Virus record (IMG/VR): IMGVR_UViG_3300049825_000213
Location: 1 to 53,686 of that record
DNA from: a virus
Lineage: Duplodnaviria > Caudoviricetes
Length of the DNA: 53,686 bases
Reading direction: 5' to 3' (one strand)
A program made the position numbers and the translations under genes. The stretch's first letter is position 1. Each line of letters starts with the position of its first letter. This document shows positions 2,442-53,686 of the stretch, piece after piece. The notes under the pieces were generated by a model. That model did no database searches, was not told the origin of the DNA, and worked only from the letters and a program-made list of their open reading frames with translations.

Positions 2442-2447
2442 TTTGCC

Positions 2448-2486: not shown

Positions 2487-2531
2487 TATTCCCGTTTTTG
2501 CCCCTGATCCCCGGGGCCGGGTCGGTCGGAG

Positions 2532-29070: not shown

Positions 29071-32000
29071 TCTTCACTGATGGCGCGACCGCCGAACCTA
29101 TTCCGATCTCGGAAGTAGGTTCCGGCTATGGCGGATATTTTGGTGCCAAGGTGTCAGAGGCTGCGGCTGAATGGCCGATCCAGCGCGGCGTTGATATCGT
29201 CGAATTGAACCGTGCCAGCGGTCGGAGACCTGTTGGCGGCGCGGTCGGAAGCGCGTTGAGTGCGGTCGGGTTGAATGATGAGCGACCCGTACCTGAGGGC
29301 GCGAAGATGCTCTCGCTCGCCGAAGCCCGCGACAAGCTTAAGTCCGAAGGCGTCGACCACCGCGAACTGCACATCACGAACGAGGGCGTCTCATCGGCCG
29401 CGCTCGATATTATGACGGCGCGGCTGAAGGCAAGGCGGGAACGGGAATCGACCATTGAACGTGGGCCGGATCACATCTGGACCGGGGCGCTTGGAGTTGG
29501 GACATCGTTTCTGGTTGGCGCGGTCGATCCGCTCAATCTTGCATCTGGGTTCATTCCAGTTGTCGGGCAGGCCCGTTATGCCAACATGATGGCTGGCGCC
29601 GGCATGTCAACGGTCGCACGCGCGGCTGTCCGGGCTCGGGTTGGTGCACTGGAAGGCGCTGTCGGCCAGGCCATGCTGGAGCCAATTGAGGTCTACGCCA
29701 CCTCGCAGGAGGGCGGCGACTACACGATGGCGAGCGCCCTGCATTCGATCATGTTTGGCGCAGCACTTGGGTCCAGCCTACGCGCCGGTGGTGGGGCGGT
29801 TGCGGATGTGATACGCCAACGCCGCGATCGGCCGCTGTTTCCGTTCGACATTGGCGAGCCGGGGAGCAATCATCCGGAATTCAAGGACCTGTCGACGCTC
29901 AAGCCGCAAGAATCGCTGGCGGCGCGACCCGAAAGCCCGTTCCTGCCAGGCCGCACGGCACCGTTCGAGGACGTTCTGAAAGCTGGCCGCGACCTGTGGA
30001 AGCGCGAGCAGGCAGAAGCCGCCATGAAGGCGCCGGATACCGTCAACCCCATGGATTGGATTGCGCAGGACAGGGCTACCCGTGAAGCCCGGCAGGAAAG
30101 CATTGTGCCATCCCCGCACGTCGAAGCCCTTAATGACCTCCCGCCACGTGCGAAGGAGGACTTGACCCGCATTGCCATCGCCAATTTGCACGACGGCCAG
30201 CCGGTCAAAGTTGGTGAAGTGCTGAATGCAACATCGTCCGATCCGCGTATTCGGGAATCGCTCGATCTTGTCAGCCGGCCGGAAGTCCGTTCATCGGCAA
30301 GGCGCGTTGGCGATGATGTTTCTGACCAGCTCGTGGCGGCTGGAGTTAGCGCCGACGAAGCCAAGGTCAATGCCGCCCTGATGGCTGCCCGCTATGCGAC
30401 CCGCGCGCAGAGGCTCGGTCGCGATGCGCATGAACTCTACCAGGCGGATGGGGTGGCGGTGCGGAAGGGTGAGACGCCGGCTGGCGCGGGTCGCTCATTC
30501 GATCAGTTCCGCTCCACAGCCCCAACCTTCTACTCCGCAGTCCTCCGCACCATTGAAGCCGGAAAGATTGCCAAGGGCTCTCCCGACCAGTGGTTGGCCA
30601 CCATCCGCAACACGCCCGGCGTCAAGCCGGAAGAGCTTGAATGGTTGGGCCTCGCCGAATGGCTCAAGGCTCAGAAGGGCGCCGTCACCAAGGAACAGGT
30701 GGCGGAGTATGTGCGAGCTAATCAGATAGAGGTGAAGGAGGTTAGCAAGGGGGCTGCGCCGCAGGTAGTTGTCATTGACCGGGCGCGCGAGCTCGCGCAC
30801 GAGGAAGGATTCAATTGGGATGATCTATCGCCGCATGAGCAAGGTATGTTTCGTGGCAGGGGCATGGACGAAAATGGCAGAAACGACACCAAATTCTCCA
30901 ATTACCAACTCCCCGGCGGCGAGAACTATCGGGAACTGCTGCTGACGTTGCCGCCAGCGAAACTCTCAGGCGAGGCGGCGGGCAAAAATCTATATGATAA
31001 TTTCATCCGGCGCGGCGGTGGCCAGACGTGGGAACAGCTCGCGCCTGAAACTCGGCATGAAATGGTCGGACGCGCGACCGAACAGGGCCGTGGGCAGGAT
31101 TACAATTCCAATAAAATGTTCCGTTCCTCCCACTGGGACGAACCAAACGTCCTCGCCCATGTGCGTTTCAACGACCGCACCATCGACGGCAAGCGCACGC
31201 TCTTCGTCGAGGAAATCCAGAGCGACTGGCATCAGCAGGGCAGGACGAAGGGTTATAGCAGACCTGTAGACAGGCAGGCGATGCGCGATCTTGAACTGGC
31301 GCGTGACGCTGCTCTAAAGCGATGGGAAGAACTGAGCGACAAGCGCGACGATGCCGTTGCGGAAGCCTTCCGCGCTTATCAAGTTGCCGATCGCAGTTAT
31401 GCGGACTACAGGATCGCCCGAGATCAAGGCGTTCCAGACGCCCCCTTCAAAACCACGTGGCCGGAACTCTTGCTCAAGCGCATGATCCGCTACGCGGCCG
31501 AGAACGGCTACGACCAGGTCGCTTGGACCCCCGGCCACGTGCAGGCGGAGCGCTACGATCTGAGAAAGCAGGTGAATGCGCTCCACATTACGCGCGATGT
31601 TGGGAATGGTAATTTTCATATCGAGGCTACGACGACCAACGGCAAACAAGCCGATATCGCGAATAATGTCGCGCCCGAGGGGCTTGGGGAATACATCGGC
31701 AAAGACCTCTCCAAGAAAATTGCGGAGGATTTTGGCGATAAGAAGGGCGGCAAGAAAACCTATTCCGGCCTCGACCTCAAGGTAGGTGGTGAAGGCATGA
31801 GCGGCTTCTACGACAAGATACTCCCTGCCGCCGTGAACAAGTTGGTGAAGAAGTACGGAACGAGGGTGGGGAGTGAACACGTCGGTGTGCCACATAAGGA
31901 TGGTAAGCAGGGTATGGATATTGACGTCCACACCCTCGCCATAACCCCGGAACTTCGCGCCGCAGCCATATCCCAGGGCTTCCCATTGTTCCAACGCGCT

Positions 32001-32999
32001 GGCGAAGGCGATCCTCGCGGTCGGATCACCCTATCCGAAAACCAAGCCATCATCACCCTGTTCCATTCCGCCGATAAATCCACCTTTTTGCATGAGTCCG
32101 GGCATCTGTTCCTCGACCAGCTTGCGCGTGATGCACAGCTGGAAAACGTGCCACAGGCGCTAAAGGACGACTTGGGCACGGTGCTGCGCTGGTTGGGTGT
32201 CGACCGGGTTGAAGACATCGGCGTGCCGCAGCATGAACAATGGGCGCGTGGATTCGAGCAATACCTGATGAGCGGCAAAGCGCCATCAAGCGCATTGGTG
32301 AAGGCATTCCAGGCCTTCAAAGAATGGCTTGGTGCGATCTATCGTTCATTGAGGGACCTGGGCGAGCCATTGCCCGATGAGATTCGCGGCGTCATGGACC
32401 GCATGCTTGCGACCGATGCGGAGATTGCCGATCGCGCACCGAAGACCAAGGAAGAGGCATGGGCCGCGCTGTCAAAGCGTGAGCCAGAGCCTACACCACC
32501 GACGCGTGGTAAGCCAGAGCATCCGGCATCGCTTCAGCCGCAGGAAATCCCGGAAGGGCTGGCGAGAGAGGTTCAGAAGGCCGATAAGGGCGAAGCGTTT
32601 CCAAGCGAGCCCGTAGAGCGCCCGCTGGTGCCTGTTTCGGCATCGGCCAAGGCTGCGGCCAAGGCTGAGGCCATAGCCAAGCAGGAATATGATGCATTGG
32701 TTGCTGCGGGCGAGATCGCTCCGGAGGCCAATGTGGCGCTCGAAGCAGCACTGGCTGCGATCGACACTGAGGCATCATTGCGCGCACGCGTCATGCGTGA
32801 GGGCGCCGGCTGCCTGGCGGGCGGGTTTGGGTTTGCTGCGGTGGCTCCGCAGGCCAAGGCGGCAACAGCCGGCGTCAAGATAGCGCTGCCCCGCGACGGG
32901 ACTGGGCGCATAGCCGGGGCCCAACTCGCGGGTGGCACCAAGATGACATTCGAGCGCGATGCAGCAACCGGAATGATTTCCGGCGTCAACATAGGGTAG
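29067..32999 (+). CDS. Large multidomain ejection/polyvalent protein
   Basis: 1310 aa; DPLN membrane-like region, EEIQSDWHQ domain, STFLHESGH zincin-like motif. Confidence 0.8.
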   Translation: MIFTDGATAEPIPISEVGSGYGGYFGAKVSEAAAEWPIQRGVDIVELNRASGRRPVGGAVGSALSAVGLNDERPVPEGAKMLSLAEARDKLKSEGVDHRELHITNEGVSSAALDIMTARLKARRERESTIERGPDHIWTGALGVGTSFLVGAVDPLNLASGFIPVVGQARYANMMAGAGMSTVARAAVRARVGALEGAVGQAMLEPIEVYATSQEGGDYTMASALHSIMFGAALGSSLRAGGGAVADVIRQRRDRPLFPFDIGEPGSNHPEFKDLSTLKPQESLAARPESPFLPGRTAPFEDVLKAGRDLWKREQAEAAMKAPDTVNPMDWIAQDRATREARQESIVPSPHVEALNDLPPRAKEDLTRIAIANLHDGQPVKVGEVLNATSSDPRIRESLDLVSRPEVRSSARRVGDDVSDQLVAAGVSADEAKVNAALMAARYATRAQRLGRDAHELYQADGVAVRKGETPAGAGRSFDQFRSTAPTFYSAVLRTIEAGKIAKGSPDQWLATIRNTPGVKPEELEWLGLAEWLKAQKGAVTKEQVAEYVRANQIEVKEVSKGAAPQVVVIDRARELAHEEGFNWDDLSPHEQGMFRGRGMDENGRNDTKFSNYQLPGGENYRELLLTLPPAKLSGEAAGKNLYDNFIRRGGGQTWEQLAPETRHEMVGRATEQGRGQDYNSNKMFRSSHWDEPNVLAHVRFNDRTIDGKRTLFVEEIQSDWHQQGRTKGYSRPVDRQAMRDLELARDAALKRWEELSDKRDDAVAEAFRAYQVADRSYADYRIARDQGVPDAPFKTTWPELLLKRMIRYAAENGYDQVAWTPGHVQAERYDLRKQVNALHITRDVGNGNFHIEATTTNGKQADIANNVAPEGLGEYIGKDLSKKIAEDFGDKKGGKKTYSGLDLKVGGEGMSGFYDKILPAAVNKLVKKYGTRVGSEHVGVPHKDGKQGMDIDVHTLAITPELRAAAISQGFPLFQRAGEGDPRGRITLSENQAIITLFHSADKSTFLHESGHLFLDQLARDAQLENVPQALKDDLGTVLRWLGVDRVEDIGVPQHEQWARGFEQYLMSGKAPSSALVKAFQAFKEWLGAIYRSLRDLGEPLPDEIRGVMDRMLATDAEIADRAPKTKEEAWAALSKREPEPTPPTRGKPEHPASLQPQEIPEGLAREVQKADKGEAFPSEPVERPLVPVSASAKAAAKAEAIAKQEYDALVAAGEIAPEANVALEAALAAIDTEASLRARVMREGAGCLAGGFGFAAVAPQAKAATAGVKIALPRDGTGRIAGAQLAGGTKMTFERDAATGMISGVNIG

Positions 33000-33002
33000 C
33001 CC

Positions 33003-33350
33003 GTGGAATATTCAGAACACGTCAAGAATGCCCGCATGAAGGCTACCATGGATGCGCTTTCGGGCGGTCGCCTTGAGATAGGCACTGTCGGTATGAGCAG
33101 CGTTCTGGTGTCAATGTCCTTGGGCCGTGGACATATCAGCGGCAGTCAAGTGGTTTGGGCAGTCGAGGAGGCAATCGCAACTGGTGAAGGTACGGCGCGC
33201 GCCGCGCGTATTCGTACGGCGAATGGCATTGCCGTCACTGGCTTTACTGTCGGGGAACGAGGCAGTAAGTCGACGATTGAGCTCGGCACCACTCGTATTC
33301 TTCCGGGTACCGTCGTGATGCTTTCTGAATTCGCGATTGAGCACAACTAA
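33003..33350 (+). CDS. Cassette 1 opener (paralogue of 37470..37835)
   Basis: YSEHVKNARMKATMDALSGGRLEIGT. Confidence 0.75.
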   Translation: MEYSEHVKNARMKATMDALSGGRLEIGTVGMSSVLVSMSLGRGHISGSQVVWAVEEAIATGEGTARAARIRTANGIAVTGFTVGERGSKSTIELGTTRILPGTVVMLSEFAIEHN

Positions 33351-33364
33351 AAGGAGCGCGTGTC

Positions 33365-33793
33365 ACGGCCGCATACACAAAGTACGAAACGTTTGTCGAA
33401 AATCTCTGCAACAAGGTCCTGGACGCGTTCGGCGCAACCGAAGTCTGGAAGGCCGTCATTCACACGGATGCGCCAGTGGTGGCGACCGACAATGTGCTAG
33501 CTGATCTCACCCAGATTGCAGGCAACAACGGATATACCACGGACGGTAACGACATCACATTCAATTCGACGCGCACCGGCGGCACTGTGACTGCCACTGC
33601 GGTTGATGTGGTGTGGACAGCCTCAGGCGGTAACCTGGGGTCAAGCACCACAGGGCGCTACGTGACCTACTACGACAGCACGCCGGCAATAAAATATCTG
33701 GCAGCGTCGTGGGATTATGGATCGACATTTACGGTGGCGGCTACAGAAACATTTACTCTGGACTTCGGGGCCTCGCTTTTCACTTTAACCTGA
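33365..33793 (+). CDS. Structural beta-rich protein with probable ACG start
   Basis: AAGGAG 8 nt before ACG; open frame (M)AAYTKYETFVENLCNKVLD...DYGSTFTVAATETFTLDF. Confidence 0.7.
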   Translation, partial: TAAYTKYETFVENLCNKVLDAFGATEVWKAVIHTDAPVVATDNVLADLTQIAGNNGYTTDGNDITFNSTRTGGTVTATAVDVVWTASGGNLGSSTTGRYVTYYDSTPAIKYLAASWDYGSTFTVAATETFTLDFGASLFTLT

Positions 33794-33807
33794 TAGGTTG
33801 CTAACTA

Positions 33808-34200
33808 ATGACTCCGCATTCTCTCGGCACAATTTCCATCGAGAACAACAAGACGCCAGCGCAAAAGGCGCTCGAAGCCGGCTGGGCGGCGCGTCATGGC
33901 ATGCACTGGGCAAAGGGCACTGTGCTGCCAGAAACGCAGGTCCCTGCCTGTCCGCGCGTGAAGGTGGCTGATCTGCCGGAAGTCTTTCTGAAGAAAAGCC
34001 ATATTGAGCATCTGGAGCAAAACCAGAAAATCAACTCATGTTGTAGGCACCCGGAGAATCATGAGATTGAGGCGCGCAAGTCGCACCCAGATGAGCAGGC
34101 GCCGGATATCTATATCTTCCACTGCACATGTGGGCGTAAGCATCGGTTTTTTTGTGTTGGCATGACTGATGACAAGCGTCCAACGTGGAGCGCAGGCTAA
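33808..34200 (+). CDS. Cys/His-rich hypothetical protein
   Basis: CCRHPENH...HCTCGRKHRFFC. Confidence 0.65.
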   Translation: MTPHSLGTISIENNKTPAQKALEAGWAARHGMHWAKGTVLPETQVPACPRVKVADLPEVFLKKSHIEHLEQNQKINSCCRHPENHEIEARKSHPDEQAPDIYIFHCTCGRKHRFFCVGMTDDKRPTWSAG

Positions 34201-35090
34201 TGGCTAAGCTCTTCAACCGAGTTAGAATGACAGTATCTGGCACGCCGGGTTCTGGCACCATTACGCTTGCGGCGGCGTTCTCGAATGCCTACTGCTCGTT
34301 TTCTGAATCTGGTGTAGCCAATGCTGATGTGGTAGCATATTTTGTCGAGGACGGCAACGACTTTGAGATCGGTATCGGCACCTATACATCGGCAGGAACA
34401 TTGTTGTCGCGTGACACGGTGGTGCTGTCTAAGATTGCTGGGGTATCTGGAACCACCAAGCTGACACTGACGAGCGCGGCGGTGGTGTATCTGTCGCCAC
34501 GTAAAGAGGATTTGTTGTCGATATCTGAAACCCAATTGGCGAACAAGGTACTGGCCGGACCAACAAGCGGTGGCGCGTCGGCTCCAACATTTCGATCTCT
34601 CGTAGCGGCAGACATTCCAAGTGCTGGAGCCGTATTGCAGGTAATACAAGCCACCTATACAGCAAACGCGGACTTAACTGTTGGAATACCATTTGACGAT
34701 ACAATCCCAACGAACACCGAAGGAACTCAAATAATCTCACAAGCAATAACACCAGCTAGCAGTGCTAACAAAGTCTTATGTAGTGTATCTGTTTGGGGTC
34801 ATGTTGTTGCAGGCGTTCAAGGCGATGGTTTTGCAGTTGCTTTATTTCGTGGTTCTACCTGTATTCAGGTTGCGTTTACATCGGCTATTGACGACAATGG
34901 TACTTCACCAACACAACTATTTCAAAACGTTTCCTTTGAGTTTCAAGACAGTCCGGCTTCAGCAAGCGCTCAAACTTACTCAGTTCGAGTGGGAGGGAAC
35001 GCATCCACCATAAGATTAAACGGATCGACAGCAGGTCGTAAGTTTGGTGGAGCATCATCGAGCGTTTTACGACTGATGGAGACAACGTGA
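34200..35090 (+). CDS. Tail-fibre-like protein
   Basis: NRVRMT...GTITL...FEIGIGTY N-terminus; VLAGPTSGGASAPTFRSLV linker; VLQVIQ...TYSVRVG C-domain. Confidence 0.7.
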   Translation: MAKLFNRVRMTVSGTPGSGTITLAAAFSNAYCSFSESGVANADVVAYFVEDGNDFEIGIGTYTSAGTLLSRDTVVLSKIAGVSGTTKLTLTSAAVVYLSPRKEDLLSISETQLANKVLAGPTSGGASAPTFRSLVAADIPSAGAVLQVIQATYTANADLTVGIPFDDTIPTNTEGTQIISQAITPASSANKVLCSVSVWGHVVAGVQGDGFAVALFRGSTCIQVAFTSAIDDNGTSPTQLFQNVSFEFQDSPASASAQTYSVRVGGNASTIRLNGSTAGRKFGGASSSVLRLMETT

Positions 35091-35353
35091 TGTTGAGGAT
35101 TATATCGGCTCAATGGGGTAATGAGAATCACACCTCTGCTGTCATCGTCACGGACGAAGCTGGCGCTGTGGCGATCAGTGCGGTGGATACGCCTCGGGAA
35201 TGGGCAGAGTTTCAGGAGTGGATGAAAAGCAATGTTGTGGCTGATCTTCCTGCCGCATTACCTCCGGCCACGAAGCAACAAAAGTTTGACCGGTGGTTGG
35301 CCGGAATAGGCGCTACGCCAGCTGAGATCAAAGCGATGCTGGGGGTCCCATGA
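35087..35353 (+). CDS. Possible fibre-assembly chaperone
   Basis: 88-aa ORF immediately after the fibre gene. Confidence 0.5.
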   Translation: MMLRIISAQWGNENHTSAVIVTDEAGAVAISAVDTPREWAEFQEWMKSNVVADLPAALPPATKQQKFDRWLAGIGATPAEIKAMLGVP

Positions 35354-35622
35354 CTACGCCGGGTTATGTCCAAGTTCCAGCCGATAGTAGCGGGAAAAAG
35401 GTCGACACGTCCGAGCAGGTGCGCGGCACTGACGGCGCCACTGTTGAGCGGCAGAACGTCGTCATCTCTGATCCGACTGATGAACTCGGTAGGGCCAAGG
35501 TGTTAGGCGAGGATGGTCGTGGCGCACTTGCCGTCAGTGGTGATATTGATGGCCTGCTTCGGTCAATCGATTACAGCCTGAAGCAAATCGTTGAGTTTCT
35601 ATCAATCGAAATGAGCAACTAA
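35350..35622 (+). CDS. Hypothetical protein
   Basis: YVQVPADSSGKKVD...RQNVVISDP. Confidence 0.6.
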   Translation: MTTPGYVQVPADSSGKKVDTSEQVRGTDGATVERQNVVISDPTDELGRAKVLGEDGRGALAVSGDIDGLLRSIDYSLKQIVEFLSIEMSN

Positions 35623-35631
35623 GGAGATGAT

Positions 35632-36306
35632 ATGCTGATTAAAATCGCCGGCCGCGTGCGAGGGTTATTCGCCGGGAACTATCCGGAAAACAGAGAAGAC
35701 GAGCAACTTCACCTCAATAATCGAGGTGATCAGATCATGGCTCAGGGGTTGCCGCCGCTGACGGAAATCGTCCGTCTTGGCGAGAGTTGGCAGATCAACG
35801 CAACAACAGGTCAGGCCGCATTGACGGCGCTGCCAACGACGACCGCTGGTCTCACGCTGGTCAACGGCGAGTCCGCGATCGGAAAGTGTTATGCCATTGA
35901 TAGCTTTGGCAGCGCCGAAGAAGTCATCGACGCCACACAAACGAATGTCACGGCGTTGTTTGCGATGATTAACAAGCGCAATTCAACGGCGCCATCGGGC
36001 GGGACTGTTGAGACAGTGTATATCTCGCTCAGTGGTCGACCTACTTATGCCGGTAGCGGCACGACGCGGCGCGGCGCAACTGTCACCAACGATGGTTGGA
36101 CGCCACACGGAACGCCGGGCGCACAGATTGCGCCTGTCGCGGCTGGCGCAAACTGGAAGGTGAATGAGGCGTTGGTTGGCGGACTATATCTTGTCCCGCC
36201 TGGCGGCGCGTTCTCAATCCAAACCGTCAAGGCGGCGGCGGCGGCGGCTGCACAGCAGTTCTTCTTCATTCGCTGGCACGAAGTGCTAGTGATCTGGAAG
36301 ACCTGA
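35632..36306 (+). CDS. Hypothetical beta-rich protein
   Basis: 224 aa, AAGGAG RBS, ends LVPPGG...IRWHEV. Confidence 0.65.
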   Translation: MLIKIAGRVRGLFAGNYPENREDEQLHLNNRGDQIMAQGLPPLTEIVRLGESWQINATTGQAALTALPTTTAGLTLVNGESAIGKCYAIDSFGSAEEVIDATQTNVTALFAMINKRNSTAPSGGTVETVYISLSGRPTYAGSGTTRRGATVTNDGWTPHGTPGAQIAPVAAGANWKVNEALVGGLYLVPPGGAFSIQTVKAAAAAAAQQFFFIRWHEVLVIWKT

Positions 36307-36335
36307 TCATAACTACACCGTAGCAGGGGACCGCG

Positions 36336-37448
36336 ATGCTTCTCGCGCTATGGTCTGGGTTCTGGAATGGTACCGTCTGGCGCGGGGCAGGGACAGAAAC
36401 CGGTAATGCTAGGTTTCTACTCGGCGGCGCGACGCTGGGCGAAGTTCCGATTACGGCTATCAATGGGCTGGCCGCCAAGACGCTGACTGCGGCGTCCGGC
36501 TCGTATTCGTTCACCGGTACAAACGCATCGGTCCTGCACAAGTGGATCGATACGGCAGGCGTCGGAAGCTACACCCTGACGGGGGCAGTAGCCTCTCCGC
36601 TGCACAAGTGGATCGTTACTGCGGCGTCCGGCTCGTATTCGTTAATAGGAACTGCGGCGGCGGTTCTACATGGCTGGCGCGTTACCTCCGCTGCTGGCAG
36701 CTATGTGTTTACCGGAACGGCTGTCTCCGTTCTGCATCAATGGAAGGTTACAGCTGGCGCCGGGTCCTATGTCGTAACAGGTGCACCTGCCAGTTTGTTG
36801 CATGCATGGCGCCTGACGGCTGCGGCTGGCTCCTATACGATCAACGGCCAAGCTGCGAGTTTGCTGCACAAATGGCGTTTGACGGCGGCCGGCGGGTCAT
36901 ACGCGATAACAGGATCAGCGGCAACCCTTACGGTTTCTAGCGCTGCCTCTACAGGCAGTGGTATTCGGTATTATCAATCCGGGCTGCCGCTGATCGCGTT
37001 ACGGTTTGGGTTCAAGCCGCTTGGTTCGCCAGCCGCCGCCGCCTCGGTCGTCAGGCACCGGGCGCAATACTCAGGCATCAGGCCGGCCAAGAAGCACAAG
37101 GGGAAGAAGGGCGCGGTCGTCGCGCCGATCGCACAGGAGCCGGTCGCGCTCCCGCCTCTGGTTATCGGGCGGGGCCGCGCGCGCGAGACCTTTGCGGATG
37201 CAGCACATGGCCTTGGTCATGTCTGTGTCATCGGTCTTGGCTGGGAACGCGAGGACGGGCGCGGGCGGGATATATGTCACGGAGCTGGCATTGTCGCAAT
37301 CTATGGTGTGGCCAGTTTCCGTGAAGACTTTGATGAGGATATGGCATTTGCGACGGGCAGCATTCGCAGCGACGAGGACGAGGCTATTGCGGCTTTGACT
37401 CAATTCATGCCATTCATGCCGTGGACGAATATCAAGGAAGACGCATAA
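36336..37448 (+). CDS. Cassette 1 closer: 22-aa repeat protein ending SDEDEA
   Basis: About 7 repeats of TAxxGSYxxTGxxAxxLHxW, then RFGFKPLG, a Lys-rich patch and RSDEDEAIAAL..FMPF. Confidence 0.75.
   Translation: MLLALWSGFWNGTVWRGAGTETGNARFLLGGATLGEVPITAINGLAAKTLTAASGSYSFTGTNASVLHKWIDTAGVGSYTLTGAVASPLHKWIVTAASGSYSLIGTAAAVLHGWRVTSAAGSYVFTGTAVSVLHQWKVTAGAGSYVVTGAPASLLHAWRLTAAAGSYTINGQAASLLHKWRLTAAGGSYAITGSAATLTVSSAASTGSGIRYYQSGLPLIALRFGFKPLGSPAAAASVVRHRAQYSGIRPAKKHKGKKGAVVAPIAQEPVALPPLVIGRGRARETFADAAHGLGHVCVIGLGWEREDGRGRDICHGAGIVAIYGVASFREDFDEDMAFATGSIRSDEDEAIAALTQFMPFMPWTNIKEDA
36949..37078 (+). repeat. 130-bp direct repeat, copy 1 (copy 2 at 41121-41250)
   Basis: 117/130 identical by eye, last 76 bp identical; same reading frame in both genes. 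Confidence 0.92.
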
Positions 37449-37469
37449 CTTTATGTTTTAAAAGGATAA

Positions 37470-37835
37470 ATGATGCAGTATTCTCTCGAAATGAAGAATA
37501 TCCGCATGGCGGCCATGCGCGACGCGCTTGTGGGGGGTAGTCTCGAAATTACTACTTCCACGGGGCAGGTCCTTGTTTCCTTGCCCATTACGAGCGGGCA
37601 GGTTGATAACGCTGTGCTTACCATGTTGGCTGTGCCAACGGTTGCGGCAGCGGATGGTGATGCTGCTTGGGGGTATCTGCTCAGTAAAGATCGAACGGTT
37701 TTTATCGACGTCCTTCGAATTGCGGGTGCGGAAACGCCTGAGGCAAAGTCCGCTGAAATTGTTATAGCCACGACGCGGATTGGTCGTGGCGGTGTTGTAA
37801 CGCCGGGCGCGATGACGATCGGACATTCTCAATAG
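37470..37835 (+). CDS. Cassette 2 opener (paralogue of 33003..33350)
   Basis: YSLEMKNIRMAAMRDALVGGSLEITT. Confidence 0.75.
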   Translation: MMQYSLEMKNIRMAAMRDALVGGSLEITTSTGQVLVSLPITSGQVDNAVLTMLAVPTVAAADGDAAWGYLLSKDRTVFIDVLRIAGAETPEAKSAEIVIATTRIGRGGVVTPGAMTIGHSQ

Positions 37836-37847
37836 GGGCCTATGTAA

Positions 37848-38729
37848 ATGAAACTAATTAAAGCTATCGGCGCGACATCCGAGATATGGCAAATTTTCAT
37901 CATGGACTCGTCAAGCTCGACGGGTGCCGGGCTTGCAGGTCTGGTGTTCAACTCGGCTGGTTTGACAGCCTATTATCATCGCGACACGGACACGACCGCC
38001 ACGGCGATCACTCTTGTTACGATGACCGTTGGGACATTCACATCGTCGGGTTTCAAAGAAATCGATGCCACCAACATGCCGGGCTGGTATCAGTTCTGCC
38101 CGCCCAATGCGGCGCTGGCGTCCGGCGCGAAATCATGCGGCTTCCATCTCAAGGGCGCGACCAACATGGCCCCGCTGCCGATCGAGGTGCAGTTGGTGGC
38201 GTACAACCCAGAGGACGCTGTTCGACTTGGGCTCACGGCATTGCCTAATGCGGCGGCAGAAGCTGCGGGCGGGCTTTATACACGAGGCACCGGAGCGGGC
38301 CAAATTAACCAGCCAGCCAACGGGAATATCGACGCCAATGTCAAGACCTGGCTTGGTGGCACCATTCCTGCTGTTACAGTTACGGGCGTTCCTCTCGTCG
38401 ACGTGAAGTACATACTCGGCACAATCAGTCCAGCGCCTGTCGGGTCCGTTGCGGTCAGTTCAAATATCAAAAAGAACGCATCCGGCCGCATTACATTCGT
38501 GATGACCGACTCAACCACGCACGCACCCAAGACGGGCTGTACCGTCACGTCACAGGTCTCGCTTGATGGGGCGGCTTTGGCATCGTGCACCAATAGCGCA
38601 TCCGAAATTGGTAGCGGGCTTTACACGCTGGTCCTGGCGGCGGCTGACACAAATGCCAACGAACTCGCATATCGGTTCACGGCATCATCCGCCGATGATC
38701 TTGTCATTGAGCGGGTAACCCAGCCATGA
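37848..38729 (+). CDS. Structural protein with two related domains
   Basis: EIDATNMPGWY and EIGSGLY motifs, reminiscent of BppU-like baseplate domains. Confidence 0.6.
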   Translation: MKLIKAIGATSEIWQIFIMDSSSSTGAGLAGLVFNSAGLTAYYHRDTDTTATAITLVTMTVGTFTSSGFKEIDATNMPGWYQFCPPNAALASGAKSCGFHLKGATNMAPLPIEVQLVAYNPEDAVRLGLTALPNAAAEAAGGLYTRGTGAGQINQPANGNIDANVKTWLGGTIPAVTVTGVPLVDVKYILGTISPAPVGSVAVSSNIKKNASGRITFVMTDSTTHAPKTGCTVTSQVSLDGAALASCTNSASEIGSGLYTLVLAAADTNANELAYRFTASSADDLVIERVTQP

Positions 38730-39514
38730 GTCTGAGACGCGGAGGGTTGGATGGTTTGACGCTCGATAGCATGGGATACTTTTCGGGCGGCGCGGCGGCA
38801 TGGACGCCAGCCTCTCTTAGCGGGTTAAAACTATGGCTTGATGCAAGCGTGAGCGGGAGCATCACTCTTAGTGGTAGCGACGTTACACAATGGGATGATC
38901 AAAGTGGTAATGGTAATAATGTCGTGCAGGCGACTAGCGCCCGGCGGCCGACATATAGCGCAACGGGATTTAACGGCAGCAAACCAGGAATTACTTGTGT
39001 TGCTGCTAATTCTCAATTTTTGAGGAATACATCGATAGGGTTCAATTCGTCGACCGGGTACATTTTTGTTGTTCAAACGAATAGTGACAGCAATCCAAGT
39101 AACGGCGGAATTATCTGTTTTGTTGGTTCATCTGCTACGAATGATTTCGGATTCGATCAGTCATTTATATTAGCTGTAAACGGGTCGTCTCCAGTTAAGT
39201 ACAGGATGACGAGCAACGCATACGATGATGCTCAACAAACTTCGACATTAAACACACCACAAGTCATTGGTTGGATATTTAATGGGGCGAGCACAACAGG
39301 ATATCTTGATTTTTCTGCTGACACAGCAGGAACGAAGAGCGGCGCTCTTGGCAATACGACGGCCGATATCGCCCTTGGCTCACGGCCATGGAATGGCAAC
39401 ACACCGTCATTTGACGGTGTATTTGCAGAGATCGTTCTTGGCGAGGGGGTGCCCTCTGCGGGAGATTTGACGAGTTTCCACTCATACTGTCAAGCCAAAT
39501 GGGGAACTTCGTAA
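38726..39514 (+). CDS. Concanavalin A/LamG-like lectin-fold protein
   Basis: WTPASL...LWLDAS...VTQWDDQSGNGNN...FDGVFAEI...KWG. Confidence 0.7.
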   Translation: MSLRRGGLDGLTLDSMGYFSGGAAAWTPASLSGLKLWLDASVSGSITLSGSDVTQWDDQSGNGNNVVQATSARRPTYSATGFNGSKPGITCVAANSQFLRNTSIGFNSSTGYIFVVQTNSDSNPSNGGIICFVGSSATNDFGFDQSFILAVNGSSPVKYRMTSNAYDDAQQTSTLNTPQVIGWIFNGASTTGYLDFSADTAGTKSGALGNTTADIALGSRPWNGNTPSFDGVFAEIVLGEGVPSAGDLTSFHSYCQAKWGTS

Positions 39515-40960
39515 GTGACAACTTTCAATTTCGTCACCGACTGCGGCGCTCCGACGAACGGGACAAGCGATGCCTCTCCAGCTGTTGATTACTGGCTGGC
39601 GAATGCGGCTGATGGTGACACTCTGTTCATGCCGGCGTATAGTTATAATTTCGCATCTACCATCACTCTGACAGCAGGTTTGAAAAATATTACGGTCAAT
39701 GGAACTGGTGCCATAGTCAGTAACCTATACATTGGCCATCAGAACTTGTTGATCCAGGACTACGTTCACAGCGCTCGAATTCAAACTGTCGCCGCGACCG
39801 CTACCAGCGCAACCCTTGTGACAGGTGCGCAGATTTCAAGGTTTTCGGTTGGGCAGTATATTATGATCGCGGGTCTAGGACTCCAAACACCGAACAGCTT
39901 CCCGCCGAACTTTCAGTATGTTGAGTTTCGCCAGATCACTGGGATTGCTGGCTCAACAATAACGTGGATCGAACCTCTCAGGTTTGCCTACAAGTCTACA
40001 TGGCCGTTGGTTGATCCTGGCGTAACTGCATCATACGACATGGGTGGACCGGCGACGGCTTACGCGCTGTCGGAGAACTTTGACTGTCAACAGACTTACC
40101 GCGGCCTTACCGTGACAGGTTCGCCCGGGGTTGGCATCAGTTGTGCAGCTGGTAGGAGCCTTATTCTAGATGGGATGACATTCACTTCAAATAATGGGCC
40201 ATCGATTAGTTTTGGCAAGACTATATCGGTCAGAAATAGCGCCGTTGGGGCACAGAACGAGATTGATAAATGCATTGAAACTGCCGAATACATCAATTGC
40301 ACAGGAGCGCAGCTGTATATGGCTAGCGCGTGTCCTGGTGTGTTGACAGTCAAAAACAACTGCCGAATCGACGCAATAAACGGAACTGGCTACGACACCT
40401 TCATTCGTGATACTTGCTCGATTGGGCTCATGTTTATTGGATCGGCAGGCTTTGGTCGAAGTAATCGTTTGATCGTCGACGATACCGTAACTATTGCTGT
40501 TTCTGGCTCTGGGCTGAATACCGGAACGGCAAAGCATGTTACTGCGTTATCCTCAATGACATTCAGTGGCGGCGTATTTACGATCGCAAATGCTGGCGAC
40601 CTATACAACAATCTTCGACTATTCGTGCCTGGATTCAAGTATGCGGTAGGCTACGACTCTGGCGACGGCTCAATCAACATCGTCGACAATCTTGGAGCTA
40701 TTACCTATTTCACTGTGACGGACATGACCCAGGATGCATCAAATACGTACATTGCAACGGACCTCGTGGCGATACCGGGCGGGACGTACGTAGGCCATGC
40801 GGCCAATGCGATTTACGCCTATGGGGTGAAATCATTGCAGCCGTCGTCATCGTTTATGGCCAGCCTCACGGCGGCCGTAGAACCTGGCGGCGCTGTTCCG
40901 GCTGTAACAGTCAGCAACATAAACAAATCGAGGCACTATCCGCACCACGGCGGGCACTAA
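39515..40960 (+). CDS. Beta-helix tailspike/depolymerase-like protein
   Basis: FVTDCGAPTNGTSDASPA...TLFMPAYSY pectate-lyase-superfamily N-terminal motif. Confidence 0.65.
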   Translation: MTTFNFVTDCGAPTNGTSDASPAVDYWLANAADGDTLFMPAYSYNFASTITLTAGLKNITVNGTGAIVSNLYIGHQNLLIQDYVHSARIQTVAATATSATLVTGAQISRFSVGQYIMIAGLGLQTPNSFPPNFQYVEFRQITGIAGSTITWIEPLRFAYKSTWPLVDPGVTASYDMGGPATAYALSENFDCQQTYRGLTVTGSPGVGISCAAGRSLILDGMTFTSNNGPSISFGKTISVRNSAVGAQNEIDKCIETAEYINCTGAQLYMASACPGVLTVKNNCRIDAINGTGYDTFIRDTCSIGLMFIGSAGFGRSNRLIVDDTVTIAVSGSGLNTGTAKHVTALSSMTFSGGVFTIANAGDLYNNLRLFVPGFKYAVGYDSGDGSINIVDNLGAITYFTVTDMTQDASNTYIATDLVAIPGGTYVGHAANAIYAYGVKSLQPSSSFMASLTAAVEPGGAVPAVTVSNINKSRHYPHHGGH

Positions 40961-41557
40961 ATGATCGGGCTGGTCTCAACCATACGATTCGGGTTTGCTC
41001 CGCTTGGGATACCGAATACAGGATTGGGCTCTAGCCAGAATAAGACCCAAGGCGGACTTCCGCAAGGTGCGATCAGGTTTGGGTTTAGACCGCGCGGGAC
41101 GGCAAGCAGCGGTGTTGTCGCTACAGGCAGCGGTGTTCGGCATTATCAATCCGGGCTACCGCCCGGTGCAGTCAGGTTTGGGTTCAAGCCGCTTGGTTCG
41201 CCAGCCGCCGCCGCCTCGGTCGTCAGGCACCGGGCGCAATACTCAGGCATTGAACTACCCAAAAGCAAGAGAAAGAAAAAAAAACAGCTTGTCGAGATCA
41301 CGCTGGCGCTCACTGCGATCGAGCGTGGTGCAGATAGTGCTACGTGTCGTGTAGGTTACGAGATTCCTGTCGCGTTTCTGTCGGCTGAGCATTGCGGCGA
41401 TGTCTTGGTTCCGTTTACAATGAGTATCGCTTATCCGTTGGCGTTAAACTCCCGCGAGACAGGTGACGACACTGCCCAGATGACTACGACCTACCGCAGT
41501 GATGAAGACGAGGCGATGGCAACATTGTTCAACCTCATGCCATTTCTTGGCAAATAG
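40961..41557 (+). CDS. Cassette 2 closer ending SDEDEA
   Basis: Three RFGFxPxG motifs, a Lys-rich patch and RSDEDEAMATLFNLMPF. Confidence 0.75.
   Translation: MIGLVSTIRFGFAPLGIPNTGLGSSQNKTQGGLPQGAIRFGFRPRGTASSGVVATGSGVRHYQSGLPPGAVRFGFKPLGSPAAAASVVRHRAQYSGIELPKSKRKKKKQLVEITLALTAIERGADSATCRVGYEIPVAFLSAEHCGDVLVPFTMSIAYPLALNSRETGDDTAQMTTTYRSDEDEAMATLFNLMPFLGK
41121..41250 (+). repeat. 130-bp direct repeat, copy 2
   Basis: Matches 36949-37078; offset 4172 bp. Confidence 0.92.
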
Positions 41558-41569
41558 GGATTCTGTTAA

Positions 41570-44179
41570 ATGGCCGAACGCGATGATTGCGTAGACAGGG
41601 TTGTGAGGGCTTCGGGTGGCCGGCTGTCGCGTGAGAAGGCTATGGACTTCCTCGAAGAGATAGACGCACGGGCTGAATCGGCAGGTCCAAGCTCTGCGGG
41701 AATGGGGGAAAAGCTGTCCAAGGCTGCGGCAGAGCTTGAAGACAAATATGCCGAGGCCGCTGCAGTAGCGCGCCGCAAAGCGCGGGTTGAGGCCATAAAG
41801 GAAATCGACGCAAAAAAGTATATCAAGCGCGCGCCAACTGTGGCGCAAGGGTTGGAGGCACTGTTCGGCGGCGTCAATACGCCATTTGCGGGCAGTCGGC
41901 TGTCTGTCGATGCACAATACAACAGCCTGAAACGAGAGCTTCTTGGCGGCATGATGGCTGAGATGCAGAGCACCAAAACTCCGGGCCTGCCGGATGGCGG
42001 TCTTGAAAAGCTGTTCCTGTCCCAGTCTATTGAACGAAAATGGATGAAAGAGCTTCACGAGATCAATAAGCTGTCTGGTGGAAAGCCTGGCGTCACGGGC
42101 GACAAGGAGGCGTTAGCCATTGCAGAGATTATTCAGCGTTGGCAAGGGCGCTCGATCGAGCGAATGAATCAGGAGGGGGCTTGGGTCAAGAGCTATTCTG
42201 GATATATCACGCGGACCTCGCATGATTCAGATCGCATTCGCCGTGCCGGAATGTCTCGGTGGATCGATGATACAATGAAGCATCTTGATGTTGAGCGCAC
42301 ATTTGGCAGCGCCGATCCAGCCGCAGCACGCAAGCATCTGGAGACTCTATATCCACAATTTGTGACTGGTGATCACTTGGATTACTCGCACATATTGGAC
42401 GATGCAGACTCCATTTTGCTTGATGTCGATTTTGCCAAGAAGGTGTCTGCGCATCGAGAACTGCATTGGAAGGACGCCGATTCGTGGGCCGATTACAATC
42501 AGGTCTACGGAAGATTTTCACCAACCTTCGCCATCACTCATGCGCTTGAAAATGCTGCACGAGTTACCGCTTTGATGGGGCGCCTTGGCCCGCGTCCAAC
42601 CGAAATGCTTAACAGAATAATTCGAGACCTCAAAGGAGAGTTGCGCGACAAAAATTCGGATGGATATCGAGAACTTGCAAAGAAGGAGCAATTTATCCGG
42701 AATCTTCTTGCACAATTTGATGGTACAGCAGCTATGCCTGTCAATGCCACCATGGCTACGATCGGAGCTGATATTCGGGCGGTCGGGTCCATGTCGAAGC
42801 TTGGTATGACCCCCTTTGCAATGCTTGCCGACCTCGCCACAAAAGCATCCGAGCTTCGTTATCAGGGTATGTCGTTTCCGGAGCGGTTCGGCGCCGCCAT
42901 GGTTGGCTACGTCAAGGAAATGCCTGACGAGATGGGCAGATCAGTTGCTGCGTTGATCGGCCACAGTATGGAAAGCGAGATAGGTCAGATCAACCGGCAA
43001 CTCAGTGTAGGAGGCAATGAGCTCCCTTCTGGACGAGGATGGGAGAAGGTTCACAACGCAATCTCCAGAGCCGAGAAGCAATTCTTCAGGCTGACGCTGA
43101 TGAACGCGATGACGTTTAACCAACGTCACCACGCAGAGCGCGTGATGGCTGAGCACTTCGGCGGGTTGCGCGGCACTGCTTTTGACGCACTTCCCGAGGC
43201 CGAACGCCGCATGATGACGGTCTTCGATATCGGTAAGCCAGAATGGGATGCTCTTCACAAGGTCGAATGGAATGATGTTGGAGGCACGACATATTTCACA
43301 CCTGATATTGCAAAGCGTCTGAGCGACCAGGACGTGAAAGCATACCTCATTGAGGCCGGACGACTGCACAAGAACGCAGGCACCGGAGAATATGTGGACT
43401 TCAGCGTAAAGAAGGCGCGCGACGATCTGAGCCTAAAAATTGCGTCATACTTCGCGGATCGTGGGCAATATGCTGTGCTTGAGCCTGGGGCGCGTGAGAA
43501 GGCCATGTTGTTCGGCGGCGCCGGGCGTGACTGGGCACGCGGAACCGTCAAGGGCGAAGCGTGGCGAATGTTCATGCAGTTCAAGACATTTACCGCAACC
43601 ATGCTGATGAAAACCTGGGGGCGCGAAATATACGGCGGACAGGGCACGGCTGGGGCGGCGGCCGGGGTTGCCGAGTTCGTGGTCTATGCGACCGCCCTTG
43701 GCATCATGGCCAATGCGATGAACCAATTGGCCAAAGGGCAGGACCCGACCAGCCGATGGAAGGAGCAACCAGGCGGGGCGATCCTGGCCGGCTTTATCCG
43801 AGGTGGCGCCGGCGCGATCTACGGCGACTTTCTCCTGGGCGAATGGTCACGACATGGTCAGTCGCTTCTTGGAACCCTGGCAGGTCCTACATTTGGGCAA
43901 CTTGAAACGGCCGCCACGATATGGTCGGACATCACCCATGCCAAGGATGGTCATTGGAAGGCCGGACATGCGACGGCTGGAACTGCACTGAAGCTGGTGC
44001 GCGACAACACGCCATTCGCCAACATGATCTATACGAAGTACGCCGTCGATGCGCTGATCTATTGGCGTATGGCGGAATGGATTTCCCCCGGCTTTTTGGA
44101 TCGCCACGAGCGCACCATGAAGGACAAGCAGGGAATCAAGTATATCGACGAACTACGTCCCACACGGGTAGCGAGATAA
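41570..44179 (+). CDS. Internal virion (ejection) protein, gp16-like C-terminal part
   Basis: GTVKGEAWRMFMQFKTF, GGAGAIYGDFL, LAGP and TPFANMIY motifs. Confidence 0.8.
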   Translation: MAERDDCVDRVVRASGGRLSREKAMDFLEEIDARAESAGPSSAGMGEKLSKAAAELEDKYAEAAAVARRKARVEAIKEIDAKKYIKRAPTVAQGLEALFGGVNTPFAGSRLSVDAQYNSLKRELLGGMMAEMQSTKTPGLPDGGLEKLFLSQSIERKWMKELHEINKLSGGKPGVTGDKEALAIAEIIQRWQGRSIERMNQEGAWVKSYSGYITRTSHDSDRIRRAGMSRWIDDTMKHLDVERTFGSADPAAARKHLETLYPQFVTGDHLDYSHILDDADSILLDVDFAKKVSAHRELHWKDADSWADYNQVYGRFSPTFAITHALENAARVTALMGRLGPRPTEMLNRIIRDLKGELRDKNSDGYRELAKKEQFIRNLLAQFDGTAAMPVNATMATIGADIRAVGSMSKLGMTPFAMLADLATKASELRYQGMSFPERFGAAMVGYVKEMPDEMGRSVAALIGHSMESEIGQINRQLSVGGNELPSGRGWEKVHNAISRAEKQFFRLTLMNAMTFNQRHHAERVMAEHFGGLRGTAFDALPEAERRMMTVFDIGKPEWDALHKVEWNDVGGTTYFTPDIAKRLSDQDVKAYLIEAGRLHKNAGTGEYVDFSVKKARDDLSLKIASYFADRGQYAVLEPGAREKAMLFGGAGRDWARGTVKGEAWRMFMQFKTFTATMLMKTWGREIYGGQGTAGAAAGVAEFVVYATALGIMANAMNQLAKGQDPTSRWKEQPGGAILAGFIRGGAGAIYGDFLLGEWSRHGQSLLGTLAGPTFGQLETAATIWSDITHAKDGHWKAGHATAGTALKLVRDNTPFANMIYTKYAVDALIYWRMAEWISPGFLDRHERTMKDKQGIKYIDELRPTRVAR

Positions 44180-44183
44180 TCAG

Positions 44184-45701: not shown

Positions 45702-45770
45702 ACGTCATAGTTGTTTGGCCTTTTGGGTCTTGTTGGTGTCGTGACAGCAATGAAAACTTGCCACCTCCTC

Positions 45771-45866
45771 CTAACCAAACACCCAGACGATAGCCGCGCA
45801 GACTCCTGCGCCGGTCAGGAATACAAACCAACTCGGTATATACACGTCCTCGATCCAGTCTTGCAT
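45771..45866 (-). CDS. 31-aa single-helix membrane peptide
   Basis: GGAGGA RBS; MQDWIEDVYIPSWFVFLTGAGVCAAIVWVFG. Confidence 0.55.
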   Translation of the reverse strand: MQDWIEDVYIPSWFVFLTGAGVCAAIVWVFG

Positions 45867-45929
45867 CGTATCCTCCATAATGTGGCCAGAGCTACTGAGT
45901 AGTACCAGTAGCTCTGGATGTTATTAAGT

Positions 45930-46006
<77 letters not shown>

Positions 46007-46016
<10 letters not shown>

Positions 46017-46282
46017 GGCGCGGCCTCCCAGGCCTTGATGGCAACGGCGGTCACATCGGTGACTGACGTGACATCTCGCAACTTAATATCGGCGGCGGGG
46101 CCAATACGGCATGTTTTGCTGGGTCCAGACGCGGCAAGTCCGAGAAACCCATGCATGTCGGCACTCCAATACACACAGTTGCGGCCGGCGCGGAGTTTTA
46201 TCGTCGTTCCGCTGGTGTCCTCGGCATAGCCGAAGAACACGCCACGGTGGGCCGTGGTAACGAGTACTGGTCGTTCTGTCAT
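46007..46282 (-). CDS. Conserved phage protein (DUF6948-like)
   Basis: VLVTTAHRGVFFG...CVYWS...GFLGLAASGP; AAGGAGG RBS. Confidence 0.75.
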
Positions 46283-46313
46283 TCAAAACCCTCCTTGTGT
46301 TGTTGGAAAAACT

Positions 46314-46342
46314 AGTGTATTACGGCGAAATGAGAAAGTCAA
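46314..46342 (-). promoter_or_regulatory. Sigma70 promoter for the reverse-strand moron
   Basis: TTGACT, 17-bp spacer, TACACT; overlaps the RHH start codon. Confidence 0.7.
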
Positions 46343-46542
46343 CGGCTGTAACACAGATAACCAGAGGGCGCTCGGCCGCGGGGGAAACCCCGGTGCATAC
46401 GGTCCGATTGAGCCGGCAGTTGCTGGCGGAAATTGATGCTTGGTGCAGCAAACAGGTCGATCGTCCGACGCGGTCCAATGCTATCAGGAGATTGATAACG
46501 TGTGGGTTGAACTACAGTTCGGCGGGGGAGAGGGGGATATGA
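46330..46542 (+). CDS. Ribbon-helix-helix (CopG-like) regulator
   Basis: TVRLSRQLLAEIDAWC...PTRSNAIRRLI. Confidence 0.75.
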   Translation: MRKSTAVTQITRGRSAAGETPVHTVRLSRQLLAEIDAWCSKQVDRPTRSNAIRRLITCGLNYSSAGERGI

Positions 46543-53503: not shown

Positions 53504-53560
53504 TGGCGTCGATGACTGTTGCGCGCACCTTGTGCTCGACATCGGCAATCAAAACCTCAA
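53504..53560 (+). repeat. Terminal overlap, copy 2
   Basis: Identical to 1-57. Confidence 0.95.
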
Positions 53561-53686
53561 GTCGCTCACGCTCGGCGACCTGAGCGACGGCGGCGGCGCG
53601 CTCTTCGGCCTCCTGTTTGGCGCGTGCGGCGATACGATCGTCGCGCTCGCGCTGCTCTTGTTCGTGGGCCGCCTTGATGGCCGCGA
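53561..53686 (+). other. 126-bp exact duplicate of 52895-53020, probable chimeric contig end
   Basis: Breaks the ORF that continues cleanly at 58-121. Confidence 0.8.

Follow-up and report, generated by a model that had tools for sequence, protein, structure and literature searches.

Two tandem gene units with bead-like and repeat-protein ends in a podovirus late operon: candidate accessory fiber cassettes

Phages such as K1-5/SP6, CBA120, and G7C carry several receptor-binding proteins on adaptor or branching proteins, and their host-binding genes lie side by side with those of small attachment proteins; systems of this type rely on anchor domains at the N-terminus or on a branching domain like that of T4 gp10, not on a bead and a disordered repeat protein. 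Chain-like fibers are reportedly the subject of a paper on the GP4 fiber (J Mol Biol 2023 435:168258), and a VP1 paper is said to be cited for them likewise. Here, we describe a 13-gene segment (positions 33003-41557) of the IMG/VR virus record IMGVR_UViG_3300049825_000213, the whole 53,686-bp stretch of which is referred to as the window. The segment consists of two tandem units, each with a small "opener" gene at its 5' end and a repeat-containing "closer" gene at its 3' end, enclosing cargo genes. We put at about even (roughly 0.5) the probability that these are two stacked accessory fiber cassettes, with a bead-type opener and a disordered repeat closer around unrelated surface-protein cargo, giving host-binding appendages.

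As far as the accessible text of the relevant reports goes, bead-on-rope fibers, garlands, and whiskers were first seen by cryo-electron microscopy between 2023 and 2026, in a handful of cultured phages (PMC13730344, PMC12609058, PMC12796354), so that at the level of the opener the "undescribed system" of an earlier note on this DNA had already been described. In the part of the A1002 report available, this podophage (November 2026) has chain-like fibers of 11 dimers on a rope, the dimers being made of gp40 and gp41, which are encoded by paralogous, adjacent genes beside the rope gene; they bind by beta-sheet augmentation and the rope is part of the nozzle protein, while the rope of GP4 is given as a separately encoded protein (PMC13730344). 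The whiskers of the Felixounaviruses Bas63 and Sf14 are described, in the accessible part of their report, as dimers with an N-terminal helix and an incomplete beta-sandwich, strung on a collar "rope" (PMC12609058), and gp014 of phage 7-7-1, in the corresponding account, is a garland protein whose homodimers are bound to the tail fibers (PMC12796354). The full-text literature, subscription papers and supplements aside, yielded only single-phage structural papers, and in the text available these describe no recurrent gene cassette, no family of repeat partners with a common tail, and no stacked units.

The segment and the two genes that flank it are organized as follows, where GSY refers to a GSYxLTGxxA repeat and GC3 to the GC content at third codon positions; HMM stands for hidden Markov model, ORF for open reading frame, AF2 for AlphaFold2, and pLDDT for predicted local distance difference test.

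29067..32999, + strand: upstream flank, 1310-aa internal virion/ejection protein (phrog_9880, phrog_3003)
33003..41557, + strand: the 13 genes of the insert, between the 1310-aa and 869-aa genes
33003..33350, + strand: opener 1, 115 aa; phrog_3758 (E 5.4e-4), opener HMM (E 4e-34), BLASTP matches to 78 IMG/VR opener homologs
33365..33793, + strand: phrog_644-like small protein, ~142 aa by homology, first gene of the GSY cassette (called ORF 33476-33793)
33808..34200, + strand: Cys-rich protein of 130 aa, the second gene conserved in the GSY cassette; homologs in GSY loci at up to 78% identity
34185..35090, + strand: 301-aa protein with a fiber-like N-terminus, unit 1 cargo (phrog_29834, E 6e-5; GC3 0.42)
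35087..36306, + strand: three unit 1 cargo genes of 88, 90, and 224 aa, with a gene-length layout as in locus L136
36336..37448, + strand: closer 1, 370 aa, with 66-nt repeats; 64 homologs of its repeat part; paralog of closer 2
37003..37078, + strand: 76-nt identical tract, copy 1, in closer 1; exact match to 41175-41250
37470..37835, + strand: opener 2, 121 aa; AF2 model with pLDDT 95.8, garland/whisker fold matches
37848..38729, + strand: 293-aa unit 2 cargo protein with a weak phrog_1084 match (E 0.0055)
38726..39514, + strand: 262-aa member of a virion structural protein family, unit 2 cargo (phrog_10356, E 1.6e-21; GC3 0.45)
39515..40960, + strand: 481-aa orphan protein, unit 2 cargo, with no PHROG, Pfam, PDB, or phage tblastn match
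40961..41557, + strand: closer 2, 198 aa; paralog of closer 1, with one outside homolog (P0002)
41175..41250, + strand: 76-nt identical tract, copy 2, in closer 2; exact match to 37003-37078
41570..44179, + strand: downstream flank, 869-aa internal virion protein (phrog_684, E 6e-140)

Unit 1 spans 33003-37448 (4446 bp) and unit 2 spans 37470-41557 (4088 bp), and once the 33476 gene is extended, gaps between genes range from -16 to +29 nt across the insert, with all 13 genes on the + strand. The two openers are paralogs (BLASTP E 3e-10, 46% identity over 48 aa and 35% over the full alignment) and are the sole opener-type genes in the 53.7-kb record. The closers are likewise paralogous (BLASTP E 2e-27, 43% identity over the C-terminal 165 aa) and have in common an RFGFKPLG motif, a Lys-rich patch, and an RSDEDEA..MPF tail. 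In an all-against-all BLASTP of the 17 genes at 26410-45701, the opener pair and the closer pair are the only matches, and the cargo is therefore unrelated between the units. Homologs of the flanking genes are directly adjacent in all four relatives examined (Pseudomonas phage Ab31, Vibrio phage 1.182.O, Stenotrophomonas phage BUCT708, and podovirus MW202510), the homolog of the N-terminus of the 1310-aa protein directly preceding that of the 869-aa protein, which marks the 8.5-kb block as an insert. Judged by these comparisons, 33003-41557 is most simply read as 13 genes inserted into the late virion operon of a podovirus of the Ab31/pelagiphage type, within the structural genes, with nozzle and ejection genes upstream and the tail fiber gene downstream. 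The earlier note holds up on each of these points: it had described two tandem units of one layout, paralogous openers of ~120 aa (here 115 and 121 aa), paralogous closers with an RFGF motif, a Lys-rich patch, and an SDEDEA tail, and cargo differing between the units, and it had raised the adjacency in relatives of the genes at 29067 and 41570.

Opener 2 alone has no match among PHROGs. Searching with a profile built from the two openers yields 149 cluster representatives (E<=1e-3), which with few exceptions are stand-alone proteins 110-135 aa long. Phrog_3758 ("virion structural protein") is matched by 43 of 50 aligned family members (best E 1.9e-20), and the openers are assigned on this basis to the phrog_3758 family. 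Among solved structures the opener profile finds one chain, 9rkv_A (E 4.6e-6); with 141 aa, this chain is as long as 7-7-1 gp014, whose ORF the profile matches in identical fashion, and we infer from this that the chain is gp014. The AF2 model of opener 2, made with a 50-sequence alignment, has a helix at residues 6-20 followed by strands, and it superposes on 9rkv_A with Z 13.0 and a root-mean-square deviation of 2.0 over 116 of 121 residues at 22% identity. It also matches 9mt4_L (a Bas63 connector chain, Z 9.2) and 9c39_K (an Sf14 neck chain, Z 9.1) at 10-11% sequence identity; the three superpositions span 99-116 residues with Z values well above those of unrelated rows, and Foldseek with the same model gives E 1.9e-4. 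The opener is thus predicted to be a bead of the garland/whisker fold, a virion-protein fold, which agrees with its earlier description as an accessory fiber or assembly-type protein.

The 7-7-1 garland (PDB 9RKV) is the best structural and profile match, and it resembles the opener in being small, in adjoining the long tail fiber gene, and in having a second paralog, gp012, two genes away; in the accessible account, 7-7-1 is a myovirus with a ring around its baseplate fibers and no closer-like repeat protein is described, whereas the window is from a podovirus and its units lie between ejection-protein genes (PMC12796354). The matching chains of Bas63 and Sf14 (PDB 9MT4, 9C39) come from a myovirus neck, and the rope there, as far as described, is the N-terminus of an Ig-like collar protein (PMC12609058). 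The window resembles GP4, VP1, and A1002 in being a podovirus, in its two paralogous bead genes (as in A1002), in the periodic extended rope that we propose, and in a separate rope gene (as in GP4). It differs from A1002, according to the text available, in that the A1002 rope is within the nozzle and its bead genes are adjacent, whereas in the window 4.4 kb separates the two beads, and other genes come after each of them (PMC13730344).

Closer 1 consists, in order, of an N-terminal 45 aa, seven 22-aa GSYxLTGxxA repeats, RFGFKPLG, the Lys-rich patch, and the SDEDEA acidic-hydrophobic tail, and closer 2 of three ~33-aa RFGF repeats, the Lys-rich patch, and the SDEDEA acidic-hydrophobic tail. 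Closer 2 is predicted to be disordered (Atlas model pLDDT 0.40), and both closers are predicted to be mostly disordered repeat proteins. An Atlas search with the closer gave no usable match. The C-terminal half of the closers has a single homolog, P0002, found by a word-based search on a 979-bp contig, and scans with single proteins and with alignments gave none in IMG/VR, JGI metagenomes, or GTDB genomes. Some of the 64 homologs of the closer 1 GSY repeats also have Laminin_G_3, BNR, or beta-helix domains, and the first 45 residues of closer 1 match P0202 at 79% identity; the HFIGKF repeats of P0202 resemble RFGF.

The 76-nt tract that is identical in the two closers lies within a 135-nt stretch of 89% identity, and the remainder of the closer genes is strongly diverged. 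Because the flanking DNA is diverged and the protein sequence of P0002 differs in the middle of the tract, the identity is ascribed to recent gene conversion and not to protein constraint, and the closers appear from this to exchange sequence still. The earlier note had proposed that the bookend genes act as homology arms; the closers do recombine, but there is no sign of arms dedicated to cargo swapping, and dedicated swapping is not required because ordinary recombination between similar bookends explains the data.

The cargo has a GC3 of 0.42-0.54, compared with 0.60-0.69 in the flanks, a composition that suggests a foreign source. Pfam gives no match for any cargo gene even at E<=10, and neither the labels "chaperone", "lectin fold", and "beta-helix spike" nor the "BppU-like" label of gene 37848, all from the earlier note, is confirmed at that threshold; the single-sequence AF2 model of the 37848 protein has a pLDDT of 32. 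PHROG matches are to virion structural proteins for gene 38726 and otherwise weak, to families of unknown function, and a PDB sequence search with four cargo proteins returned nothing meaningful. By tblastn, the 38726 protein is found in 13 phage records, annotated as virion structural protein or hypothetical, and phrog_1084, the weak match of the 37848 protein, also occurs beside an opener pair in L040. Residues 4-117 of the 34185 protein match proteins at the same cassette position in four loci, one of which, in L122 (506 aa), also resembles the window tail fiber 44184. The Cys-rich 33808 protein has no PHROG or Pfam match, and the genes at 35087-36306 have no PHROG match and no Pfam match above the curated cut-off.

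We asked how often such units recur in IMG/VR, using 80 fetched of 296 confirmed opener-encoding stretches, in 78 of which the opener HMM finds an ORF; L008 and L011, likewise returned by opener queries, have no real opener by HMM. An ETGxD-repeat protein is encoded within 4 kb downstream on the same strand at 35 of the 51 loci with at least 4 kb downstream, and none of the 46 loci that extend 4 kb or more upstream has one on that side of the opener (Fisher p 2e-14 for downstream versus upstream); with identical openers removed, 27 of 41 loci have the downstream gene, and none of 78 control loci has an ETGxD-type repeat ORF. These proteins contain 2-16 copies of a 22-24-aa LAATETGADT-type unit, match no PHROG or Pfam family, and are candidate ropes of chain-like fibers. 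Their cassettes are headed by the openers' own family. Among 83 distinct repeat proteins, 11 have a closer-like acidic-hydrophobic C-terminal tail, compared with 39 of 1603 other ORFs (p 1.6e-5), and the tail is combined with a basic patch in 8 of 83 versus 9 of 1603 (p 4e-7); one such tail ends ..DEDEAIAVLL...

A second kind of cassette was defined as a phrog_644-like gene upstream, on the same strand, of a protein with at least three GSYxLTGxxA 22-aa repeats, and 78 loci were fetched with the GSY repeat from at least 513 stretches. Homologs of the 33476 gene are present at 58 of these 78 loci, and homologs of the Cys-rich 33808 gene, which come immediately behind the phrog_644 gene, at 36 of 78, all of them on the strand of the repeat gene; where both could be placed, the small gene lies 64-3476 nt upstream of the GSY-repeat gene (52 of 56 loci). 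The cassette typically comprises the phrog_644 gene, often the Cys-rich gene of ~130 aa, 0-4 variable genes, and a GSY-repeat protein of 242-1510 aa whose non-repeat part is variable. Unit 1 has this arrangement, with its seven repeats in closer 1, and its part at 33365-37448 belongs to this type, the first two genes there being up to 82% and 78% identical to cassette genes. Locus L136 has the layout of unit 1, with genes of 142, 130, 304, 85, 241, and 221 aa followed by a 242-aa GSY protein; sequence similarity is confined to the first two genes and the last, the middle genes having no BLASTP similarity at E<1e-4. By these comparisons unit 1 is a bead gene that precedes a member of a widespread type of cassette, one whose ends are conserved and whose middle varies. 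A small 5' protein, a variable middle, and a 3' repeat protein, the bracketing that the earlier note had expected to recur in viral metagenomes, does so at 35 of 51 and 58 of 78 loci, whereas the exact combination of opener and closer is found nowhere else.

The 33365-33793 protein is 69-82% identical to genes of ~142 aa among the six best-matching loci, and these genes match phrog_644. The frame of the 33476 gene is open from 33341 and has no ATG, GTG, or TTG where the homologs start; an ACG at about 33365 aligns with their ATG, with AAGGAG at 33351-33356. A non-canonical start, an error in sequencing, and a mutated start codon are all conceivable here. As a candidate second type of bead, the phrog_644-like protein has no PDB profile match, and hhalign gives 3% against the opener family.

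The window differs from the cassettes found elsewhere in combining elements of both types, in having two stacked units, and in lying between ejection-protein genes, whereas the others follow the portal, follow head genes, or lie beside tail fiber genes. The opener module directly follows a portal/head-morphogenesis gene, or is separated from it by one small gene, at 6 of 11 annotated loci (L058, L064, L038, L079, L020, and L034); it follows a head-protein gene in L035 and head genes in the phage record MW202496 (L010), and is among tail fiber-like genes in L090 and L015. The phrog_644 family also precedes opener homologs in two loci, immediately in L015 and at a distance of a few genes in L090. 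On related backbones (phrog_2941 ... phrog_3287; L112, L099, L035, and L010), the slot after the head/connector genes holds either a phrog_644/GSY or a phrog_3758/ETGxD cassette, as though the two types could replace one another. Among the 158 loci fetched, none has two whole cassettes in tandem. Adjacent bead paralogs occur at 9 of the 78 opener loci. Adjacent or near-adjacent bead pairs are seen in L040, L078, L090, L019, and phage 7-7-1 (L013, 1387-2765), and a phrog_644 pair in L101, recalling the two-bead fiber of A1002.

It is plausible that the insert genes are expressed together with the virion genes and that each closer would form an extended tether, or rope, fixed to the particle by its acidic-hydrophobic tail; the predicted disorder, the periodicity, and the recurrence of that tail in other repeat proteins are consistent with this role. 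Opener dimers would clamp onto the closer repeats by beta-strand augmentation, by analogy with chain-like fibers, whiskers, and the garland, and the bead and closer genes are on the same strand in the same unit; a complex prediction with two copies of opener 2 and residues 1-100 of closer 2 (score 0.00, fold of the partner uncertain) speaks neither for nor against such binding. Cargo proteins would then assemble on or beside this scaffold, unit 2 offering the same bookends as unit 1 around different cargo, and the phage would gain two host-binding appendages in addition to its own tail fiber 44184. Incorporation of the 13 proteins into virions and receptor binding by the cargo are presumed in this scheme.

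Several observations weigh against stacked accessory fiber cassettes of this kind. Homology between closers and ETGxD repeat proteins is not established by hhalign (1% probability); a repeat-unit HMM and a tail HMM do not recover the closers among 524 window ORFs, and forward closer HMMs matched 3 and then 13 repeat proteins, most with high compositional bias, so that we speak of a common architecture rather than established homology. A phrog_3758 opener is upstream of the GSY-repeat gene at none of the 78 GSY loci and anywhere in the locus at one, and GSY repeats are therefore not generally dependent on this bead; the opener as a regular companion of GSY-repeat genes was rejected on the same count. 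Typically 0-3 genes separate bead and repeat gene elsewhere, compared with 3-6 in the window. Pfam PF23140 (Gp80, the GP4 fiber monomer) is matched by 0 of 50 opener-family members at E<=0.1, and GP4 (8JOU) is absent from the Foldseek and fold-match lists of opener 2; because of these two results the opener is filed as garland/whisker fold and not as Gp80, an Atlas feature lead of 0.85 being its sole link to PF23140. Some cassette genes look non-structural, among them the Cys-rich 130-aa protein and a gene at the same position in L136 that matches a methyltransferase PHROG, and the placement of opener modules after the portal in other loci may indicate an appendage on the head or neck rather than the tail.

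That last point leads to the variant in which the units encode head or neck appendages, such as capsid fibers, whiskers, or collar decoration, with the mechanism otherwise unchanged. It draws on the six loci with a portal or head-morphogenesis gene and the head-gene positions in L035 and MW202496, and on known precedents, since the Bas63/Sf14 whiskers are neck structures (PMC12609058) and the GP4 chain-like fibers dock on the capsid (PMC13730344), in the accessible parts of those reports. The insert itself, however, is among tail and ejection genes near the tail fiber, and the closest structural match, the 7-7-1 garland, belongs to the baseplate, and we regard a head or neck location as unlikely. 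We think it somewhat more doubtful still that this is a dedicated, stackable cargo-exchange system, in which bookends serve as homology arms and receptor-binding cargo is swapped between phages as a unit. The identical 76-nt tract inside diverged closers, the low GC3 of the cargo relative to the backbone, the recurrence of cassettes with conserved ends and a variable middle, and the dissimilar middle genes of L136 are what such a system would leave behind; yet gene conversion between tandem paralogs needs no special system, the opener pair has no long identical DNA and exchange is visible in one "arm" only, the closer C-terminal half has its single outside homolog and none in the three contig collections, and no locus was found with the same bookends and different cargo.

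We consider it very improbable that the tandem is an assembly artifact, in which two one-unit strains were co-assembled through the closer repeat. The evidence comes from Logan contigs, and not raw reads, of one run (X1), which is probably the source sample and is non-independent, and its contigs placed on the window do not span 32500-35350. These contigs do break exactly at the 76-nt repeat, and contig depth is 15.2 in unit 1 but 20.6 in unit 2, is 15.8 downstream, and reaches 46.1 in the 76-nt repeat; unit 2 may vary in copy number or between strains, although contig depth is too coarse to interpret. A 4156-nt contig nevertheless matches 37049-41204 with 0 differences and connects the unique 3' portion of closer 1 to opener 2, the complete unit 2 cargo, and closer 2, and the junction from closer 1 to opener 2 is therefore physically linked, whereas a two-strain model would join closer 1 to the 869-aa gene, and the graph offers no alternative path except a 4.1-kb circle. 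A non-structural moron, defense, or counter-defense island in the late operon would fit the 10 of 13 genes that have no significant PHROG match, the lack of any Pfam match above cut-off, the small Cys-rich protein, and the foreign composition, but we find this barely credible because 0 of the 13 insert genes match PADLOC at E<=0.01, and the opener fold is that of a virion protein, gene 38726 belongs to a virion structural PHROG, and related cassettes sit inside structural modules.

The window is a complete IMG/VR virus record, with a completeness estimate of 98%, and PHROG scans of its proteins outline a late operon of podovirus type on the + strand, including the separate tail fiber gene to which the earlier note had drawn attention:

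13040, + strand: small terminase
14768, + strand: large terminase
16712, + strand: portal
19877, + strand: major capsid protein
21542, + strand: adaptor
22551, + strand: nozzle
between the nozzle and 26410, + strand: two small internal virion proteins
26410, + strand: 886-aa internal protein with a transglycosylase
44184, + strand: separate tail fiber
after the tail fiber 44184, + strand: HNH gene, then endolysin

By BLASTP, the N-terminal ~250 aa of the 29067 protein are homologous to Ab31 gp15-type proteins. The homologs of this 1310-aa ejection protein are less than half as long (about 570 aa) and align only with its first ~250 residues; the remainder has a phrog_9880/phrog_7348 match and an HExxH-like HESGH motif. 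Distant homologs of the 869-aa protein occur in 92 cultured-phage records by tblastn, including Pseudomonas phage Ab31, pelagiphages, and Liberibacter phages; an IMG/VR search with the same protein gave no close relative of the phage, and megablast of 29000-46000 against cultured phages gave no match. Promoter- and terminator-like sites in a scan of 28000-47000 are at chance expectation, with no excess. We note 25-mers common to the first ~100 and last ~200 bases (window 1-100 and 53500-53686), a possible terminal repeat or circular overlap, though the record carries a linear classification; repeated 25-mers that form a dense family at 1800-3200; and, just after the tail fiber gene, an 18-nt GCCGTAGCCGTCGCCGTA-type tandem repeat at 45918-46229 that adjoins a strong terminator-like hairpin at 45886-45917.

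The bead family appears to be common, with 296 IMG/VR stretches encoding a relative, and the gene order suggests that it usually travels with a downstream repeat protein, its would-be rope; a second pair of small protein and repeat protein (phrog_644 with GSY repeats, at least 513 stretches) occupies equivalent positions. We raise, tentatively and as a possibility that we would not call likely, that tailed phages share an undescribed class of portable, stackable appendage cassettes that insert at varied sites in structural operons and whose conserved ends are recombination tracts for cargo exchange. Such a cassette would begin at the 5' end with a gene for a small beta-protein (phrog_3758 or phrog_644), continue with surface proteins that vary freely, and end at the 3' side with a tether that is disordered, built of 22-aa repeats, and equipped with a basic patch and an acidic-hydrophobic tail for docking; the window would then be the first case in which two are stacked, its 76-nt tract recording a recent conversion. 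Should the repeat proteins prove to be tethers that dock through a common kind of tail, accessory host-recognition modules in uncultured phages could be found by a simple rule, and receptor-binding cargo would have a natural scaffold for its exchange; the stacked units inside this ejection-protein operon would illustrate how such modules spread and multiply.

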